From Myxococcales bacterium (GTDB taxonomy: Bacteria; Myxococcota_A; UBA9042): a stretch of DNA of 41,403 nucleotides. Positions 15,001 through 21,000 of the stretch are shown here, piece after piece; positions within the stretch are counted from its first letter, which is position 1, and the number at the start of each line of letters is the position of its first letter. The DNA lies in assembly GCA_037441385.1 (NCBI GenBank), contig JBBISH010000049.1, forward strand, positions 1 through 41,403. The letters are read 5' to 3'. The position numbers were made by a program.

Positions 15001-18000
15001 GAACCTGGGCGGCGGAACCCTGCAGTGCACCAAGGTGTGCGGCAGCGACGGCTGCCCCGCGGGCCTGGAATGTACGCAAGTCTTTGGTGCTTCAGGGGAT
15101 ACCCTGATGGTCTGCATGCTGCCCGTGCTAGACGCGGGCCCGACCGACGGCGGGGCGGGCGATGCCGACGACGCCAGCACGACCGATGTCAGCATCCAGG
15201 ATGGGCTGGTCGACGCGATCGAGAGCGATGTCTGGGACAACGAGTTGCCGATCGACGACAGCTGGCAGACCGACAGCAGTTTGCCCGACGTCGACCCCGG
15301 CGACGGGTTCGTCAGCGACGGCACCGGCGTGCCCGATAGCGTCGACGACAGCGTACAAGACCAAAGCACCGGCGAGGTCACGCTTTTGCCCGACGGCGCC
15401 GCCGCCCCCGACTGGCAAGGCTACGGGGACCTGAGCTGGCCGACCGACGCGGACATCTACGCTGGCGCCATCGGCTCGTGCCTGTCCATGTACCTGTACC
15501 AGAACGAGAGTTGCGGCGACACCCACCCCAGCGCCGCCTGCATCGACGGCATCGTCGCGGACGGCAGCCTGTACACGCAGGCGATGTTCGACCCGCTGCG
15601 CCAGTGCGAGAAGGCCGCCTGCGTGGACCTGTGCGCCAGCGCCACCGACAAGACCTGCATGGAAAAGTGCATCGCCAAATACTGCGCGCCGCAGTTCTTC
15701 GCCTGCACCTCGAACGCGATGATCGGCACCAGCACGTGCGCCGACGCGTGGAAGTGCTCGCAAGACTACCCGGGCAAGTTCCTGACCATCAGCGCCAAGT
15801 GCTACGCTGCGGCCAACGCCACCGGGCAGCAACAGTTCTCGGCGGTGATCAGCTGCGCCACCCAGCCACAGACGGCTTCGTGCGTGCCGCAAATCGCCAC
15901 CTGCTTTGGCGCCAGCCCCGCCGGCACCGAAAACTGCGGCAATACCTCGGCTTGTATGAACGCCTGCAACGGCGACCAGTCCTGTTCGTGGTCGTGCTTG
16001 GGCAAGGCCTCGCCGCAGGCCGTGCAGCTCGTCGACGACGTGTGGACCTGCTCGGTGCAGCAGTGCCAGCCCAAGTGCGCTGGCGCCGAGCCGTGCCAGA
16101 CCGACTGCCTGAAGTCAGCCTGCCAACAGCAGCTGGTCAAGTGCCTGACGAATTAGAGAAAGCTCAAGGTTCTACCGGCCGCGGCGGCACCGCCGGCTGC
16201 CCCGCCGGTCGGCGCTGAACGTTCGCCGACTTGTTCAAGGCCTCTTCGACCTGGCTGCGCACCTTCTCGCGCTTGGCCGTGGCCAGATCCTCTTCGATCG
16301 TGACCCGCACGTCGCCGAGCTGCAGGGCTTCGTTGACGCGCACGTCGACCAGCTGCACCAGCCAAAACCGGTGGTTCGGACCGCGGATCAGGTCGGACGT
16401 CTCGCCAGGCTTCAGGCGGGGCAACACTTCGCGCCATTGGGGCGGCATCTGGTGGAATTTCAGGTAGCCCAAGTCCCACGGACGCGCTTCGCCCAGCGCA
16501 GGCGCCTTGGTCAGCTTGACGTAGACCGGACCCACGGCCTCGCCGCGCTTGAGGGCCGCCTGAGCTTCGAGCATCGGCGCTTCCTCGCGACCAAAGAGCT
16601 GCAGCACGTGGTACTCGGTACGGATCTGCTTTTGCTCCCGCTCCCAATACTCTTGGACTTCCGCCTCGGTCGGACGGGTTGGATCCAGCACCTGGCGGCG
16701 GAAGTATAGGTCGGCCAACCGTTCGCGACGCAGCGAATTGCGCTGCACTTCGATCTCGGCCAAGTCCTTGACGACCGCCGCATCGGTGTCCAACCCCTGC
16801 CGCACCGCCTGCTGAGCGGCAAGCTCGCGCTGGATGATCTGCTCCAGGGCGGCCGCCTCTTGCTCTTGGGTCAGTTGCACGTTGTTGCGCGTGCGGTTGC
16901 GCAGCGAAAAGCGCACGTCGTCGGTCGTGATGAGCACGCCGTTGACGGTCGCCAGCACGTCGCCGGCCACGGAAGTCGCCGGCTTGGGCAGCTCGGCGGC
17001 GCACGCGGGACAGGCCGGGCAGGCAGGTTGCACCGTGGCGGCGGAATCCGGGGTGGCACGGCTGCAACCGGCCGCCCAGACCATCAACAACGCTAGAGGG
17101 ATATGTGCTCGCATGGGTTCCAAGGGCGGGTCTCGCCGGCAAATGGTGCGCCAAGAGGGCAGAGGGCCCGATCGCAGCCGCGATCGAGCCCCCCACAGGT
17201 AATACGAACCCCATCTGATTCGCGCCTGTACGGCTTTTCTGACCCGTTGTGCAACTGGCGAGAATCAGGCGGGGACCCCGGTTCGGGCCCGAGGAATTAC
17301 CCGAGTTTTCGATCCGACTCGGACGGAATTGGCGTCACTTATGGCAAGTCACGCAGCTCTCGGCCTCGTCGCCGCTCCAGGGGTCGGCGGGCGTGGGATC
17401 GTAGGTCTGCGCGGCAAAGTGCGCCTGCGCGGACAGCGAATCGTGGCAGCCCCAGCAGGCCAGGCGGTTGGGCTTGTTTGCCCAGGTGCCGCTGGTGGTG
17501 TTGGCGGTGTGACACAGCTCGCAAGTGCGCACGTCAGCAGGCAGTTTGATGTCCCAATTGCGGCCGGCGTCGGGATCGCCGTTCGCATACCACACCGTCT
17601 GCAGCGGGAAGTTCAGCGCCGAGCCGTTGTGGATGGCGTGGACACGCCGCGAAATCGGGTGGCTGCCCTGCCAACCCTGGTTCAGCACGGTGTTGCTCAG
17701 ATCCTTTGGATTCTGCGGTTGGTAGTCGTGGCACGCGCCGCACTGATCCAAGGCCTGGTCGCGCAAGATCTTGTTGTGGCGGGCTGGGTCGAGAACCAGG
17801 CCCACGCCGTTGCCATTCTGGTGGCAGGTCTGGCAGTTGCGGGCAACCGGCAGCTCTTCGGTGCTCTGCTTCACCGTGAAGTTGAAGAACGCGACGCTGG
17901 GGGTGACGTAGTTGTCGCCGTCGACGCGATAGCGGTCGCCGATTTCGACGCTGACGGTGTAGGTGCCGGCCGGCAGATCGTCGACGGGGTCGAGTTGGTA

Positions 18001-21000
18001 GGTGACCTTGTCGGCGGTGCGGGTGACCTTGGGGTCGTCGATGGCGCCTGCGGCGGTGCGCTTGGCCAACACGTTCGAGGCTGTGCTGGAGTTGGTGCCC
18101 GTCGCGGTCACGTTGCCACCGAACACCAGGGTATTGAACGTGCTGGCAGCGAACTGCACCGAGAACACCCGGCCCAGGTTGCGGCTGCGGATCGCGAACT
18201 TGCCCGTCGCCTCGTCGATGTAGGCGATACCGCGCGCCTTGAAGGCGGCGTTGGCGTTGAAGGCCGCGACCAATTCCGCAGCCGTGACGGCAGCTTTGTT
18301 GGCATACGCCGAAGCAGCCAGGGCGACCGTGGCCACACCGGCGACCGGCTTGTCGCCACCGGTGGCGTCAAAGGCCACGAGCGGCTGGCCCGCGTCGAAC
18401 GTGACGGTCAGGGTCGGCGCCGAGTCGGAGGTCAGGTCCCACGGGCCGACGGTGTTCGACAGGATCTTGGCCCGGGCGGCCATGGTCAGAGCCGGCGAGC
18501 GGTAGGCGCGCGGGCCATGGACAAAGAAGCCCGAGTCGCCGAACTTGCCGTTGGGCGTCTGACAGGTGGCCGGCGGCAGGGTCGTGGGCGCGGTGCCCGT
18601 CCAGCAACCCTCGGCCGCGCCTTCGATCATGGTGGTGTGGTCGATGGCTTTGCCGGTCTTGGCGTCCTTGAGAACGACGGTGACGACGGGCGCGTCGCCC
18701 GCCTCGTAGTAGGTCTTACCGCTCTTGGGCGCCGACATCGACAGTTCGATGTTGAACTCGGGAACGTTGCGCGGGTCTTTGCCTTCGATGGCGTGGGCTT
18801 CGATCACGCCCAGGCCAAAGCCACCTTCGTCGTGGCAAACCATGCACTTGTTGTCGGTGGCCTGAGCGCCGCCCTTGTGGCCCACGCCGGTGGCGAAATC
18901 GACGGTGTCGTGGCAAGAGCCGCAAGCGGCGCGCGACGGAACTTTCCACGCGTCGACGTTGGCGCCGCTGCCGCTGTGGCACTTGGTGCAATTGCCCAAC
19001 TCCGCCGGGAAGCCGGCCTTGTACCAGCTCACCTTGGCATTGCCGTAGCCCCACAGCGCATAGGCGCTGGCGAGCGGGCCGTTGTCCTTGCTCTCGTCCG
19101 CGGCGGTGCCGGTGTTGTTCCAGAACTGGCGGTCGGGGCCGCCGATGCTGGGAAGCTGACCACCGGCGTGGATCTTGTGGATCATCACCTTGGCGTCCAG
19201 GCTCTGCTTGCTCTGCGCGTCGAATGTCGACGGGTTGTGGCAGGTGACGCAGTTCTCGATCGACAGGCGATCGCCGCCATGGCCCTTGAACTGCGGGCCG
19301 TGGCAGGCCTGGCATGCCGCGGTGTTCACGATGTTCTTGGTGGCGGGCAGCTTGGTGATCGTGGTGTCGGGCACAAAGTCAAAGACGGCGTCGGCGGTGG
19401 GGCCGGCGTGTCCGCCCGTCATGATGCTGACGCGGTGGGTCAACTTGCGGTCGTAGCCGACCAACGCGCTGCCGGCCTTGCCGTCAACGGTGGCCTTGGC
19501 CAGATTGGTCACGAATTCATAGGTGTAGGTGCCATCGTTGTTGTTGGTGAGGAGGCCGGTGGTGGTGCTGCTGCCGCTGGACTCGCGGTAGGCCTGCACC
19601 GCCGTGTCGCCGTCTTTGGCCGGCCAGGGATCCTTGGCTGTCGCCGAGCCGGACACGGTCTCGATGCGGTAGATGTAGTTGACCCACTTGGTGAACGCTT
19701 CGCCCGCGGTGGCGTCGGGGCCGGCCAGCTTGGCGATGTTGGCCGTGACGGCCGCGACCGTCTTGACCGGCTTGCCGGCGGTGTCGTCGACCTTGAACTT
19801 GACGGTGACCTTGCCGGCTTCGTCGGCGGTGGCGGCGGTGATGGTCATGACCGCGTCGCTCTTGCCGGCGGTGGCGTATTCGCCGCTGGTCTGCAGGTGG
19901 GCCAGACCGTGGAAATTGGTGATGCCCGCGCCGCTGCCGTTGGCGCCGGCGGGACCCACGGGGCCGGTGGGACCCGTGGCGCCGTCTTTGACGGTGACCG
20001 TGGTGCCATCGGTGCAGGTGATCGTCTTGCTGCCGTTGCCATTGTCCTTGACGGTGCAGCTGTTGCCGTCTTTGCCCGGCGCGCCCGTGTCGCCGGTGGT
20101 GCCGGTCGCGCCTTGCGGGCCCGGTTCGCCGGTGGCGCCCGTGGCACCCTGCGGTCCGGCCACGCCTTGGTCGCCCTGGTTGCCGGTGGCGCCATCCTTG
20201 ATGACGACCGAGGTGCCGTCGCTGCACGAAACCGTCTTGGTGCCGTCGGTATTGTCCTTGACCGTGCAGGTAGTGCCGTCTTTGCCAGCGGCGCCGTCCT
20301 TGCCGTCTTTGCCGTCTTTGCCGGCCGTGCCGTTCTGGCCGTTCTGGACCGTCACGGCGGTGCCGTCGGGGCAGGTGATGGTCTTGGTGCCGTCGCCATT
20401 GTCCTTGGCGGTGCAGTCCGAGCCGTCTTTGCCGGCCTTGCCGTCCGCGATCTTGACCTCGGTGGTGCCACAGGTGATGGTCTTGGTGCCATCGCCGTTG
20501 TCTTTGATCGAGCAAGTCGCGCCCGAAGCGCCCGCGGCGCCTTTTTCGCCTTGAGCGCCCTCGCAAGCCAGCATCATGCTGCCCGCGGCGAGCAGGAGGA
20601 GGGTACGCGAATTCACCGCGCGCAGAATCTGTTGCATGAGGTCACCTCGTGGTTTTCGCCCGATAGTCCGCAGCGGGCGGTGCGGCGTTGGCGGCACGAC
20701 ACGGGGCAGAAGTGCTCGTTTGGCAAGCGTCGGCCACCCCGTAGGCGTAGCATAACTGGCGGTGGGCGCTCGAGACAGCCAAGGCGTTGCGGGGAACGGC
20801 CAGAATAGCGCTGCTATATTGAGGTGTTTTACTATTCAGCCAGCTGTCCGATTGCAATGGCGTGACCGCCGTTGCACTTCGGTGACGAAGCAGGGCCTAG
20901 CGAGCGCGGCGCACCGCGGGCGAAAGGAGCGCCTGCGTGCTGCGAATTTGCGCGGGCTGGCCACCCTGGGGCGCCGTGCGCACCGTGATCTCGGGGATGG

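Follow-up and report, generated by a model that had tools for sequence, protein, structure and literature searches.

A myxobacterial OmcA/MtrC-type decaheme cytochrome on a lipid-anchored, collagen-like stalk that is predicted to be trimeric

The outer-surface decaheme cytochromes OmcA, MtrC, MtrF and UndA of Shewanella (PDB 4lmh, 4lm8/6qyc, 3pmq, 3ucp; TIGR03507) combine a lipoprotein signal with a four-domain head (beta, pentaheme, beta, pentaheme) that carries ten CxxCH motifs arranged 5+5. Signal and head are joined by a short linker only, and MtrC and OmcA are described as one per MtrAB conduit. Gly-X-Y runs alternating with three-strand units of ~25 residues are known from PF19079 proteins such as pneumococcal PclA, a Gram-positive adhesin of the YSIRK/LPXTG wall-anchored kind that also contains G5 domains. 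Scl1/Scl2, BclA and Burkholderia Bucl8 possess one long Gly-X-Y run and one terminal trimerisation domain. Excerpts from PMC8968730 describe their Gly-X-Y sequences as proline-poor and rich in charged or polar residues, including GKD triplets, and state that trimeric bacterial collagen-like proteins need a non-collagen trimerisation domain and serve as stalks projecting a globular domain.

The locus analyzed here lies on a contig of 41,403 nucleotides from a Myxococcales bacterium (the window) and encodes an 1100-residue cytochrome to which the genome-wide survey's note had drawn attention. Its reading frame was borne out on the minus strand (Table 1), while an alternative GTG start in the same frame, at 20697, would lengthen the product by 20 residues. 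Like the Shewanella proteins, it starts with a lipoprotein-type signal, as claimed before. Judged from the lipobox, the signal peptide would be cleaved and Cys25 lipidated. This cysteine is conserved in at least 90% of 21 aligned homologs, and in 61 of 61 loci with a locatable lipobox Cys (74 related loci examined) it is directly followed by Gly-X-Y or by a CFSR unit (collagen-flanked surface repeat, PF19079).

The head belongs to the OmcA/MtrC family by sequence as well as by fold, which supports the family assigned in the note (TIGR03507, Pfam, phmmer, Foldseek). All ten CxxCH motifs are exactly where the note had placed them, again in a 5+5 layout, and CxxxCH or CxxxxCH variants are absent from the 1100-residue sequence. 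The OmcA-like_N score of 28.0 bits was reproduced, whereas Mtrc-MtrF_II-IV (PF22113) reached 123.8 bits across two stretches rather than the 83 and 45 bits reported earlier. In the PDB, phmmer detected OmcA (4lmh) at the top (2e-21), followed by MtrF, UndA and MtrC, and the Foldseek ranks 1–16 were all occupied by OmcA, MtrC, UndA or MtrF (E 1e-20 to 1e-7), although identity in these structural alignments is only 15–19%. Domain III contains a Cys pair in the Shewanella proteins and in the present one, where this pair (C678/C692) and twelve non-motif His residues are invariant across 21 homologs. Domain III is larger than in the Shewanella cytochromes, as ~325 residues separate hemes 5 and 6. 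In place of the short linker, a collagen/CFSR stalk of 213 residues follows the lipid Cys.

Table 1. Features of the stalked decaheme cytochrome gene and its downstream neighbour. Residue numbers refer to the 1100-aa protein; signal peptide cleavage and lipidation are predictions.
Feature	Coordinates	Strand	Basis or remark
OmcA/MtrC-type decaheme cytochrome gene	17335..20637	minus	ATG start, 1100 aa; TIGR03507 290.9 bits, cut-off 209.3
Signal peptide and lipobox, residues 1-25 (...SMMLAC)	20563..20637	minus	sequence reading; Cys25 predicted to be lipidated
Gly-X-Y run 1, residues 27-41, 5 triplets	20515..20559	minus	begins two residues past lipid Cys
CFSR unit 1, residues 42-65, C42-C56	20443..20514	minus	Pfam; three beta-strands in monomer model
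Gly-X-Y run 2, residues 66-74, 3 triplets	20416..20442	minus	sequence
CFSR unit 2, residues 75-99, C75-C89	20341..20415	minus	Pfam, sequence
Gly-X-Y run 3, residues 100-123, 8 triplets, GKD-rich	20269..20340	minus	continuous three-chain interface in trimer model
CFSR unit 3, residues 124-148, C124-C138	20194..20268	minus	inter-chain contacts at every other residue of 136-146 in trimer model
Gly-X-Y run 4, residues 149-193, 15 triplets	20059..20193	minus	Pfam Collagen match
CFSR unit 4, residues 194-218, C194-C208	19984..20058	minus	sequence, trimer model
Gly-X-Y run 5, residues 219-236, 6 triplets	19930..19983	minus	then ITNFHG, start of head
Head domain I, residues 266-427, beta-rich, OmcA-like N	19357..19842	minus	PF22112 28.0 bits; pLDDT ~90
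Head domain II, residues 434-606, pentaheme, hemes 1-5	18820..19338	minus	PF22113; CxxCH at 442, 463, 550, 572, 598
Head domain III, residues 607-930, enlarged, beta-rich	17848..18819	minus	invariant Cys pair C678/C692
Head domain IV, residues 931-1100, pentaheme, hemes 6-10	17338..17847	minus	PF22113, second stretch; CxxCH at 935, 966, 1039, 1061, 1095
PPIC-type peptidyl-prolyl isomerase, 319 aa, downstream	16164..17123	minus	PF13145 29.6 bits

The stalk is built from five perfect Gly-X-Y runs (5, 3, 8, 15 and 6 triplets, 37 in total), which alternate with four Cys-bracketed units, each carrying a tail of 9–10 residues. The note had counted the four units correctly but had seen only three runs (7, 14 and 5 triplets). 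By sequence, the units belong to a known Pfam family, PF19079 (40.5 bits, cut-off 27), a match additional to those reported before, and PF01391 Collagen matches residues 149–192 with 36.1 bits (cut-off 27.2) instead of 28. The same pair of Pfam families occurs in PclA-type adhesins, whose sequences are 34–36% identical over 91% of the stalk. No cysteine bracket surrounds the units of PclA (only 2 Cys in its 1897 aa), whereas those of the cytochrome appear disulfide-bracketed, and their array is N-terminal, lipid-anchored and carries a redox enzyme. With Scl1/Scl2, BclA and Bucl8, as portrayed in the excerpts cited above, the cytochrome shares proline-poor Gly-X-Y sequences rich in charged and polar residues, GKD triplets and the proposed projecting-stalk design, but it has five short runs and four internal units. 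The NCBIfam matches to SclB and SclA are weak and membership in these families was rejected, the score being far under the cut-off (39 versus 325 bits).

We modeled residues 98–245 as a complex, with three as the only copy number. The score (ipSAE) was 0.55 (0.55, 0.56 and 0.55 in three runs), while the best of three controls gave 0.00. At least 95% of contacts recur between the runs, with a partner pLDDT of at least 83. An unbroken interface with staggered contacts extends along all three Gly-X-Y runs covered, and alternate residues of the CFSR strands are touched; the inter-chain contacts of lowest error fall at residues 161–179 in run 4. In calibration, 20 of 30 proteins whose solved structures are pairs of one chain reached the mark for this score, as did 1 of 23 known as single chains, a yardstick that is only rough for three copies and an author-made alignment. 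Solved structures include many collagen triple helices, and the trimer model may therefore pass because of its collagen likeness rather than the behaviour of this protein. Alternatively, the Gly-X-Y/CFSR region could be a monomeric tether that gives reach without any triple helix, leaving the protein a monomer like Shewanella MtrC. Such a tether would agree with the possible influence of remembered collagen on the model and with the monomer AlphaFold2 model, which is poor overall (mean pLDDT 59.8) and drops under 50 along the Gly-X-Y runs and over large parts of the heme domains. The runs are also short (3 to 15 triplets) and proline-poor (Pro at 7 of 74 X/Y positions), which, like the poor monomer model, speaks against a trimeric rod as well as for a tether. 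Bacteria lack hydroxyproline, so that the stability of a Gly-X-Y helix depends on the flanking units.

Conservation of the stalk bears on the same question. The nearest ortholog (83% identical) aligns to it with zero indels and has kept 36 of 37 Gly, compared to 20 of 37 X and 24 of 37 Y residues. The lone unconserved Gly, in run 2, is replaced by Ala, a point in favour of the tether. A disordered linker needs no glycine at every third residue, however, and yet glycine is retained while X and Y drift. Nor does it need spacers of whole triplets, and yet 134 of 168 inter-unit spacers from 88 homologs consist of the fixed tail of 9–10 residues followed by 0 to 15 perfect Gly-X-Y triplets. Together with the three-copy score, these features make the monomeric tether doubtful. 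The collagen trimer claimed in the note gains support from the model, the glycine pattern and the triplet spacers, but it remains a prediction for a type of fold that the model has seen.

The stalk is a recurrent module. By direct motif count it is present on 97 of 112 N-terminally complete homologs (the best 120 listed minus 8 incomplete ones), and the design is common in uncultured relatives. Precomputed Pfam assignments, counted manually, place PF01391 on 23 and PF19079 on 6 of the best 120 homologs listed; the recurrence inferred earlier from 19 of 120 was right, the figure too low. Among the 15 unstalked homologs, nine have a Cys-free signal peptide directly followed by the head start (IT.FHGT). 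The same stalk is found on three other multiheme cytochromes of this genome (contigs C11, C38 and C141) and, elsewhere, on non-heme lipoproteins, including myxobacterial ones, with FGE-sulfatase, RCC1 or receptor-L cargo. The stalk might act mainly as an adhesin in the manner of PclA and Scl, binding minerals, polymers or cells, with distance being secondary. Its closest named relatives are indeed adhesins, the excerpts from PMC8968730 credit PclA with a contribution to adherence, and the X and Y positions change rapidly, as they do in binding regions exposed at a surface. Cargo as unrelated as four kinds of cytochrome, FGE-sulfatase and RCC1, and a stalk length varying from 4 to 37 triplets with only Gly and the unit core conserved, are more in keeping with a generic spacer than with a specific binding site, and we consider a primarily adhesive function improbable. 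Adhesion and spacing are mutually compatible roles. In the searchable literature we found no description of a collagen-like stalk fused to a decaheme cytochrome; the novelty claimed in the note holds for this fusion, whereas the module itself was already known from Pfam CFSR and the PclA adhesin.

Our preferred reading, to which we assign a probability of roughly 60%, is a lipid-anchored decaheme head on a trimeric collagen/CFSR rod that is exported across the outer membrane to its external face. A myxobacterial electron-export cytochrome of the Shewanella type would thus be connected to its lipid anchor through a long rod, collagen-like and predicted to be trimeric. The stalk would link the head to the acylated N-terminal Cys, and three chains would wind into one segmented triple helix. 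The disulfide-bracketed beta units could form trimeric knots that fix the register and hold the short helical runs together, yielding a rod with three heads and 30 hemes. Collagen rises 0.286 nm per residue, at which the 37 triplets alone would span ~32 nm, or an estimated 40 nm, roughly, with the CFSR units. Heads lifted above the membrane and polymer layer could reach minerals, shuttles and other cytochromes.

As to location, the outer face is the most likely destination of the lipoprotein. A rod spanning the periplasm, with the hemes as a periplasmic relay, would suit the lack of a porin partner beside the gene and an estimated length on the order of the periplasm width. This arrangement appears unlikely, since the head family is of the extracellular OmcA/MtrC type, a trimer of 1100-aa chains on a ~40 nm rod is hard to fit between the membranes, and the stalked paralog on C11 sits at the outer-cytochrome position of a porin-cytochrome operon. 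Moreover, Lys after the lipid Cys is an inner-membrane retention signal in Myxococcus, whereas Glu occupies this position here.

The gene neighbourhood also differs from that in Shewanella: mtrAB is not adjacent, MtrB/PioB was not found in the genome (90.9% complete), and a downstream PPIase is conserved instead. Of 66 related loci with at least 900 nt downstream, 47 have it next to the cytochrome gene in the same orientation, and it is the only conserved neighbour; cytochrome and PPIase probably form a two-gene unit. No porin lies within the window, as the note had stated, but in a sister clade a porin-like gene, homologous to the C11 barrel, adjoins the stalked decaheme gene in 7 of 74 related loci. 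For the outer-face rod, electrons might come not from an MtrAB partner but from unlinked outer-membrane conduits, e.g. the C11 operon, which encodes a 24-heme protein, a 22-strand beta-barrel, a 13-heme protein and, as last gene, the stalked 9-heme protein. A GspD secretin (439 bits, cut-off 351) is also encoded in this genome. A rigid stalk of ~40 nm would leave the heads beyond direct reach of a membrane conduit, which counts against this explanation, as do the failure to find MtrB/PioB, the lack of a porin in the window and the one-per-conduit arrangement described for Shewanella MtrC and OmcA. Pcc clusters are known in a Geobacter-type form and a two-gene form from Anaeromyxobacter, the latter described in excerpts from Shi et al. 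2014 (PMC4245776) as a porin plus a 12–14-heme periplasmic cytochrome of 338–344 aa, with no outer cytochrome gene. C11 similarly pairs its barrel and 13-heme cytochrome beside a stalked multiheme lipoprotein, the barrels being likened to published Pcc porins by gene arrangement. Such genes are not adjacent to the decaheme gene in the window, but three of the seven loci (L045, L050 and L054) add to the homologous barrel a 13-heme cytochrome of 354–363 aa beside the stalked decaheme gene.

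The cytochrome is encoded by a single minus-strand gene with an ATG start codon, and an in-frame GTG is located upstream at position 20697. The plus-strand reading of the same interval is an open frame that represents compositional junk and was discarded. Scanning positions 15900–21100 for promoters and terminators yielded nothing above chance. The protein begins with a lipoprotein signal peptide ending in SMMLAC, whose final cysteine, C25, is the predicted lipidation site and is retained in at least 90% of 21 homologs. One residue after this cysteine, Gly-X-Y runs and Cys-bracketed units start to alternate. 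The genome-wide survey's note had described three such runs; these are present, each being one triplet longer than reported, but the total is five rather than three, with 5, 3, 8, 15 and 6 perfect triplets in order (37 altogether). The 31 cysteines are accounted for by C25, eight residues in four brackets (C42-C56, C75-C89, C124-C138 and C194-C208), 20 residues in heme motifs and the pair C678/C692. Each unit begins right after a complete triplet, and a tail of 9–10 residues precedes the next glycine. The C-terminus reads CVTCHK and carries no LPXTG motif. Coordinates of this gene and of the other features discussed are compiled in the table.

Features of the window, of other contigs of the same genome (C numbers) and of related loci (L numbers)
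Feature	Position	Strand	Description
Stalked decaheme cytochrome	17335-20637	-	1100 aa
Upstream gene	20897-24706	-	1269 aa, no family; N-terminal hydrophobic segment, highly charged Glu/Arg/Lys middle; kept only in L016, the nearest relative
Open reading frame	14291-16156	+	621 aa; high-GC3 coding signal; no Pfam/NCBIfam match; found only in L016 and L017
Cys-rich repeat protein	26802-29882	-	1026 aa; 15 Dicty_CTDC Cys-rich repeats (262 bits) and FGE-sulfatase/SUMF1-like domain
isc-like Fe-S cluster assembly operon	34331-39637	-	Rrf2 regulator, class-V aminotransferase (IscS-like), NifU_N, Fe-S_biosyn (IscA-like), DnaJ-domain protein, Hsp70
Four-gene operon (L090)	C11:36000-47500		24-heme cytochrome, 501-aa secreted protein without family, 13-heme cytochrome, stalked 9-heme lipoprotein
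Stalked cytochrome	C11:37714-40821		9 hemes, 22 triplets, 3 units
Stalked cytochrome	C38:43703-46252		7 hemes, 23 triplets, 3 units
Stalked cytochrome (L092)	C141:2-2866		10 hemes; starts mid-stalk, N-terminus cut by contig end
Lipobox and stalk fragment (L095)	C196:5895-6614		runs off contig end
Multiheme open frame	C10:70753-80622	+	3290 aa, 50 CxxCH
Frame with GspD secretin match	C58:23567-26689	+	
Porin-linked locus (Myxococcaceae/Archangiaceae clade)	L054 7072-11810		
Porin-linked locus (same clade)	L045 5072-7374		
Porin-linked locus (same clade)	L050 11565-13591		

The C-terminal part of the protein, the head, is an OmcA/MtrC-family decaheme cytochrome, as had been proposed: NCBIfam model TIGR03507 matches with 290.9 bits against a cut-off of 209.3, and Pfam and fold agree. 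Pfam detects Mtrc-MtrF_II-IV (PF22113) in two stretches with 123.8 bits and OmcA-like_N (PF22112) with 28.0 bits. All ten CxxCH motifs were reproduced by script at the positions reported earlier (442, 463, 550, 572, 598, 935, 966, 1039, 1061 and 1095). They are laid out as 5+5 in two pentaheme domains (442–598 and 935–1095), each of which follows a beta-rich domain. A phmmer search of the PDB ranked OmcA first (2e-21), followed by MtrF, UndA and MtrC. The AlphaFold2 monomer model, which was built without heme from 21 sequences, has a mean pLDDT of 59.8; beta domains I and III are well modelled and the heme domains poorly. When this model was submitted to Foldseek, ranks 1–16 were taken by OmcA, MtrC, UndA or MtrF, all with probability 1.00; the low TM-scores of these matches (0.14–0.23 by query length) result from the poor modelling of the heme domains. 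An alignment of 21 homologs shows no variation at the ten heme motifs, at another twelve histidines or at C678/C692. Shewanella structures of this family possess a conserved disulfide pair in domain III.

The N-terminal part, the stalk, is likewise built from known modules. The longest Gly-X-Y run accounts for a match to Pfam Collagen (PF01391; 36.1 bits, cut-off 27.2). The Cys-bracketed unit is not new but corresponds to Pfam PF19079, the collagen-flanked surface repeat (CFSR; 40.5 bits, cut-off 27), and each of the four units lies between two Gly-X-Y runs. TIGR04203 remains under its cut-off (48.6 versus 60 bits), and the protein falls outside the LPXTG collagen-like adhesin families SclA/SclB and Lcl, for which 39.1, 27.9 and 20.9 bits were obtained against cut-offs of 325, 400 and 500. 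In the monomer model, each unit is predicted to form three short beta-strands. A search restricted to the stalk returned 2598 proteins at E≤0.001 (7991 scored). Related cytochromes aside, the best 120 of the 2598 are mostly Streptococcus pneumoniae PclA and G5-domain surface proteins, which match with 34–36% identity over 91% of the stalk. In contrast to the Cys-bracketed units of the window protein, those of PclA lack the bracket cysteines (2 Cys in 1897 aa). Also among these best 120 are proteins of myxobacteria whose cargo is FGE-sulfatase, receptor-L or RCC1. Reading the sequences of two such proteins, P0138 and P0135, revealed a lipobox followed by a GXY/CFSR array ahead of the non-heme cargo, and FGE-sulfatase cargo on a collagen/CFSR stalk occurs in P0125 and P0138 from Myxococcota. 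When the stalk sequence was compared with the PDB, only collagens were matched, by composition, and no solved CFSR unit was found. The DNA copies of the units are just 70–77% identical to each other, which rules out recent duplication; the array is therefore old. Taken as a whole, the collagen/CFSR-stalked decaheme cytochrome is a real feature, combining an OmcA/MtrC-family head with a collagen-like array of the PclA/CFSR kind.

Conservation, spacing and structure prediction all point to a collagen-type structural constraint on the stalk. Relative to the ortholog P0004, which is 83% identical, equal in length and free of indels, glycine is kept at 36 of 37 positions, X at 20 and Y at 24 of 37, while 87 of 99 residues are identical in the CFSR units and 694 of 835 in the head. 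In 88 homologs, 168 spacers separating consecutive units were examined; 134 (80%) consist of the fixed 9–10-residue tail plus perfect (GXY)n up to the next cysteine, with n ranging from 0 to 15, and many of the other 34 arise from parsing that overlooked a unit. Three copies of residues 98–245 were predicted with ESMFold2 (alignment A1) to associate as a staggered triple helix, with ipSAE values of 0.55, 0.56 and 0.55 in three runs that share at least 95% of contacts (partner pLDDT at least 83); the best of three controls reached 0.00. In calibration, the mark was attained by 20 of 30 proteins solved as same-chain pairs and by one of 23 solved as single chains, figures that stem from two copies and other alignments and hold only roughly for the three-copy run, three being the one copy number used. 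The modelled interface is unbroken over residues 98–124, 146–194 and 212–237, with staggered contacts, and alternate residues from 136 to 146 and from 204 to 212 of the units are in contact. This is the pattern expected of a triple helix interrupted by trimeric beta knots. As collagen helices are well represented among solved structures, the positive trimer score may reflect mere likeness, or the model's memory of solved collagens, and the runs are short and proline-poor (Pro at 7 of 74 X/Y positions).

Recurrence of the stalk in relatives, which the survey's note had suggested, is borne out. A search with the head retrieved 582 proteins at E≤0.001; among the best 120 of these, 112 are N-terminally complete (8 with truncated N-termini were dropped) and 97 of the 112 are stalked: in 67 the stalk contains CFSR-like units, in 30 it consists of collagen alone. 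In nine of the 15 unstalked homologs a Cys-free signal peptide is immediately followed by the motif IT.FHGT, which marks the start of the head and is found at residues 239–245 of the window protein; the presence of the lipid anchor is therefore tied to that of the stalk. When one genome per species was scanned, 486 relatives were found and 74 loci returned, belonging to Myxococcota (among them the cultured Anaeromyxobacter sp. PSR-1) and to metagenome-assembled genomes labelled Planctomycetota, Gammaproteobacteria, Thermodesulfobacteriota, Chloroflexota and Acidobacteriota. A lipobox cysteine was located heuristically in 61 of these loci, the other 13 being N-terminally cut, mis-started or plain-signal forms, and GXY or CFSR follows directly in 61 of 61. 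Forty of the 61 carry CFSR (a count that, like the tree, wrongly includes L031, whose repeat is really another Cys-rich one) and in 21 the stalk is a single collagen run, 26 triplets long at most. On a FastTree phylogeny of 59 heads, from which 16 incomplete rows were excluded, stalk type requires at least 6 changes; the minimum is 2, and shuffling gives a mean of 18.6. The window protein belongs to a starred clade of six rows, every one with a long mixed stalk, and its own stalk (37 triplets, 4 units) is the longest among the loci and homologs examined.

The same stalk is present on three more multiheme cytochromes of this genome (6.63 Mb, 90.9% complete), in which 34 open reading frames contain at least four CxxCH motifs; these paralogs are encoded on contigs C11, C38 and C141. 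The fragment on C196 may be the missing start of the C141 gene, split by the assembly at the repeats. The C38 paralog has a weak match to PF21930, 'beta helical trimerization domain', which at E 0.0056 lies under the cut-off and serves as a lead only. Regular-expression matches resembling CFSR on C18 and C20 turned out to be other Cys-rich repeats.

Downstream of the cytochrome, a gene for a PPIC-type peptidyl-prolyl isomerase (PPIase) is the single neighbour conserved across related loci. Of the 66 loci with 900 nt or more of downstream sequence, 47 have it adjacent to the cytochrome and in the same orientation; across the 41-locus cluster the gap has a median of 52 nt. The PPIase could be thought to assist collagen folding in the stalk, and it is present in 45 of 62 stalked loci; the only two complete unstalked loci, L029 and L070, both lack it, a sample too small for a verdict. 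However, its one copy in the genome lies beside the window gene and none accompanies the stalked cytochromes on C11, C38 and C141, and the homolog of Anaeromyxobacter sp. PSR-1 (L025), whose lipobox is followed by 9 triplets, one CFSR unit and 2 further triplets, is stalked without an adjacent PPIase. From this distribution the PPIase was assigned to the head family, as an aid to folding or export, and not to the stalk.

The statement in the survey's note that no partner porin lies beside the gene holds for the window, which contains no MtrA- or MtrB-like gene and in which no multiheme or barrel gene adjoins the cytochrome. In the 90.9%-complete genome, MtrB/PioB (PF11854) gave 0 matches, and no MtrCAB-type module is seen around the gene. 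The upstream 1269-aa gene was rejected as a partner or porin: it matches no family and is kept in one of 74 loci. A candidate porin-cytochrome conduit is provided by the C11 operon, a tight cluster whose last gene encodes the stalked paralog, a protein with CarboxypepD_reg and PKD domains. The 501-aa protein of this operon has a Lys/Glu/Pro-rich tail, and its likeness to 'porin family' clusters of the ESM Atlas (0.98) is a lead only. Its model shows 22 antiparallel strands (mean pLDDT 63.8, from 9 sequences), and in Foldseek all 44 matches listed (ranks 1–49, with gaps) are outer-membrane barrels, with 353 matches at E≤0.001. A homolog of this barrel adjoins a stalked decaheme cytochrome in 7 of 74 loci (L045, L047, L050, L054, L066, L073 and L079), and in L045, L050 and L054 a 13-heme cytochrome of 354–363 aa stands alongside the two. 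The PPIase accompanies the stalked decaheme in L045 and L054 and was not found in L050; L054 encodes an additional 11-heme lipoprotein. According to Shi et al. 2014 (PMC4245776), Anaeromyxobacter pcc clusters comprise a porin and a 12–14-heme periplasmic cytochrome (338–344 aa) and no gene for an outer cytochrome. For conduits of this kind, we infer that the outer partner is a stalked lipoprotein cytochrome. Contig C51 does not provide a two-gene Pcc cluster, as the gene after its 12-heme cytochrome encodes a histidine kinase.

In the mechanism we propose, cleavage and lipidation at C25 would be followed by association of three chains, nucleated by the CFSR units, which would zip into a segmented triple helix starting one residue from the three lipid anchors. 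Collagen rises by 0.286 nm per residue, so that 37 triplets would span about 32 nm and a rod with four knots an estimated 40 nm or so. Three decaheme heads would thereby be placed at the rod tip, beyond the membrane and its polymer layer. Electrons could reach them from unlinked conduits, either via other stalked cytochromes or shuttles or, should the rod bend at its interruptions, directly; the heads would pass them on to extracellular acceptors.

In current models of extracellular electron transfer, the terminal decaheme is a monomer that sits directly on its porin partner. With a lipid-anchored and probably trimeric head mounted on a stiff, length-tunable spacer, both this geometry and the local heme density (30 hemes per rod) would be different, and it would have to be asked anew how electrons get to the head. 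The survey's note had regarded the design as undescribed. This stands for the fusion but not for the stalk module, which is already known from PF19079 and PclA: a search of the openly accessible literature found no description of a collagen/CFSR stalk joined to a multiheme cytochrome. The term 'cytochrome' does not occur in a 2022 review of prokaryotic collagen-like proteins (PMC8968730), nor does 'collagen' in PMC3669403. The combination for which no description was found is a lipid-anchored, disulfide-bracketed array fused to several kinds of multiheme cytochrome, in the absence of MtrAB and together with a dedicated PPIase. Nor is the design rare, given its share of complete homologs, its loci in several phyla and four cytochrome kinds in one genome; with such recurrence, uncultured bacteria of soil and sediment would be using it commonly. 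It also represents a natural modular lipoprotein display stalk, for which Anaeromyxobacter sp. PSR-1 is a cultured carrier.

A far-reaching extension, which we consider improbable at present, is that myxobacteria and others build a 'heme canopy', in which varied multiheme cytochromes, each a trimer, top rigid collagen/CFSR rods whose lengths are graded, and carry electrons through the surface polymer layer. If so, rods of 22, 23 and 37 triplets as found here would hold heme layers roughly 20–40 nm above the outer membrane, working with porin-cytochrome conduits that have no outer cytochrome of their own to deliver electrons to minerals or neighbours. This would be a third solution next to cytochrome nanowires and membrane extensions, and in the CFSR knot, very short triple helices would have a new means of trimerising and keeping register.

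With regard to export, MtrC and OmcA of Shewanella leave the cell by the GspD secretin route. The present genome encodes a GspD secretin (439 bits, cut-off 351). The frame that holds this match, on C58, also contains a run of 12 Gly-X-Y triplets at residue 693.
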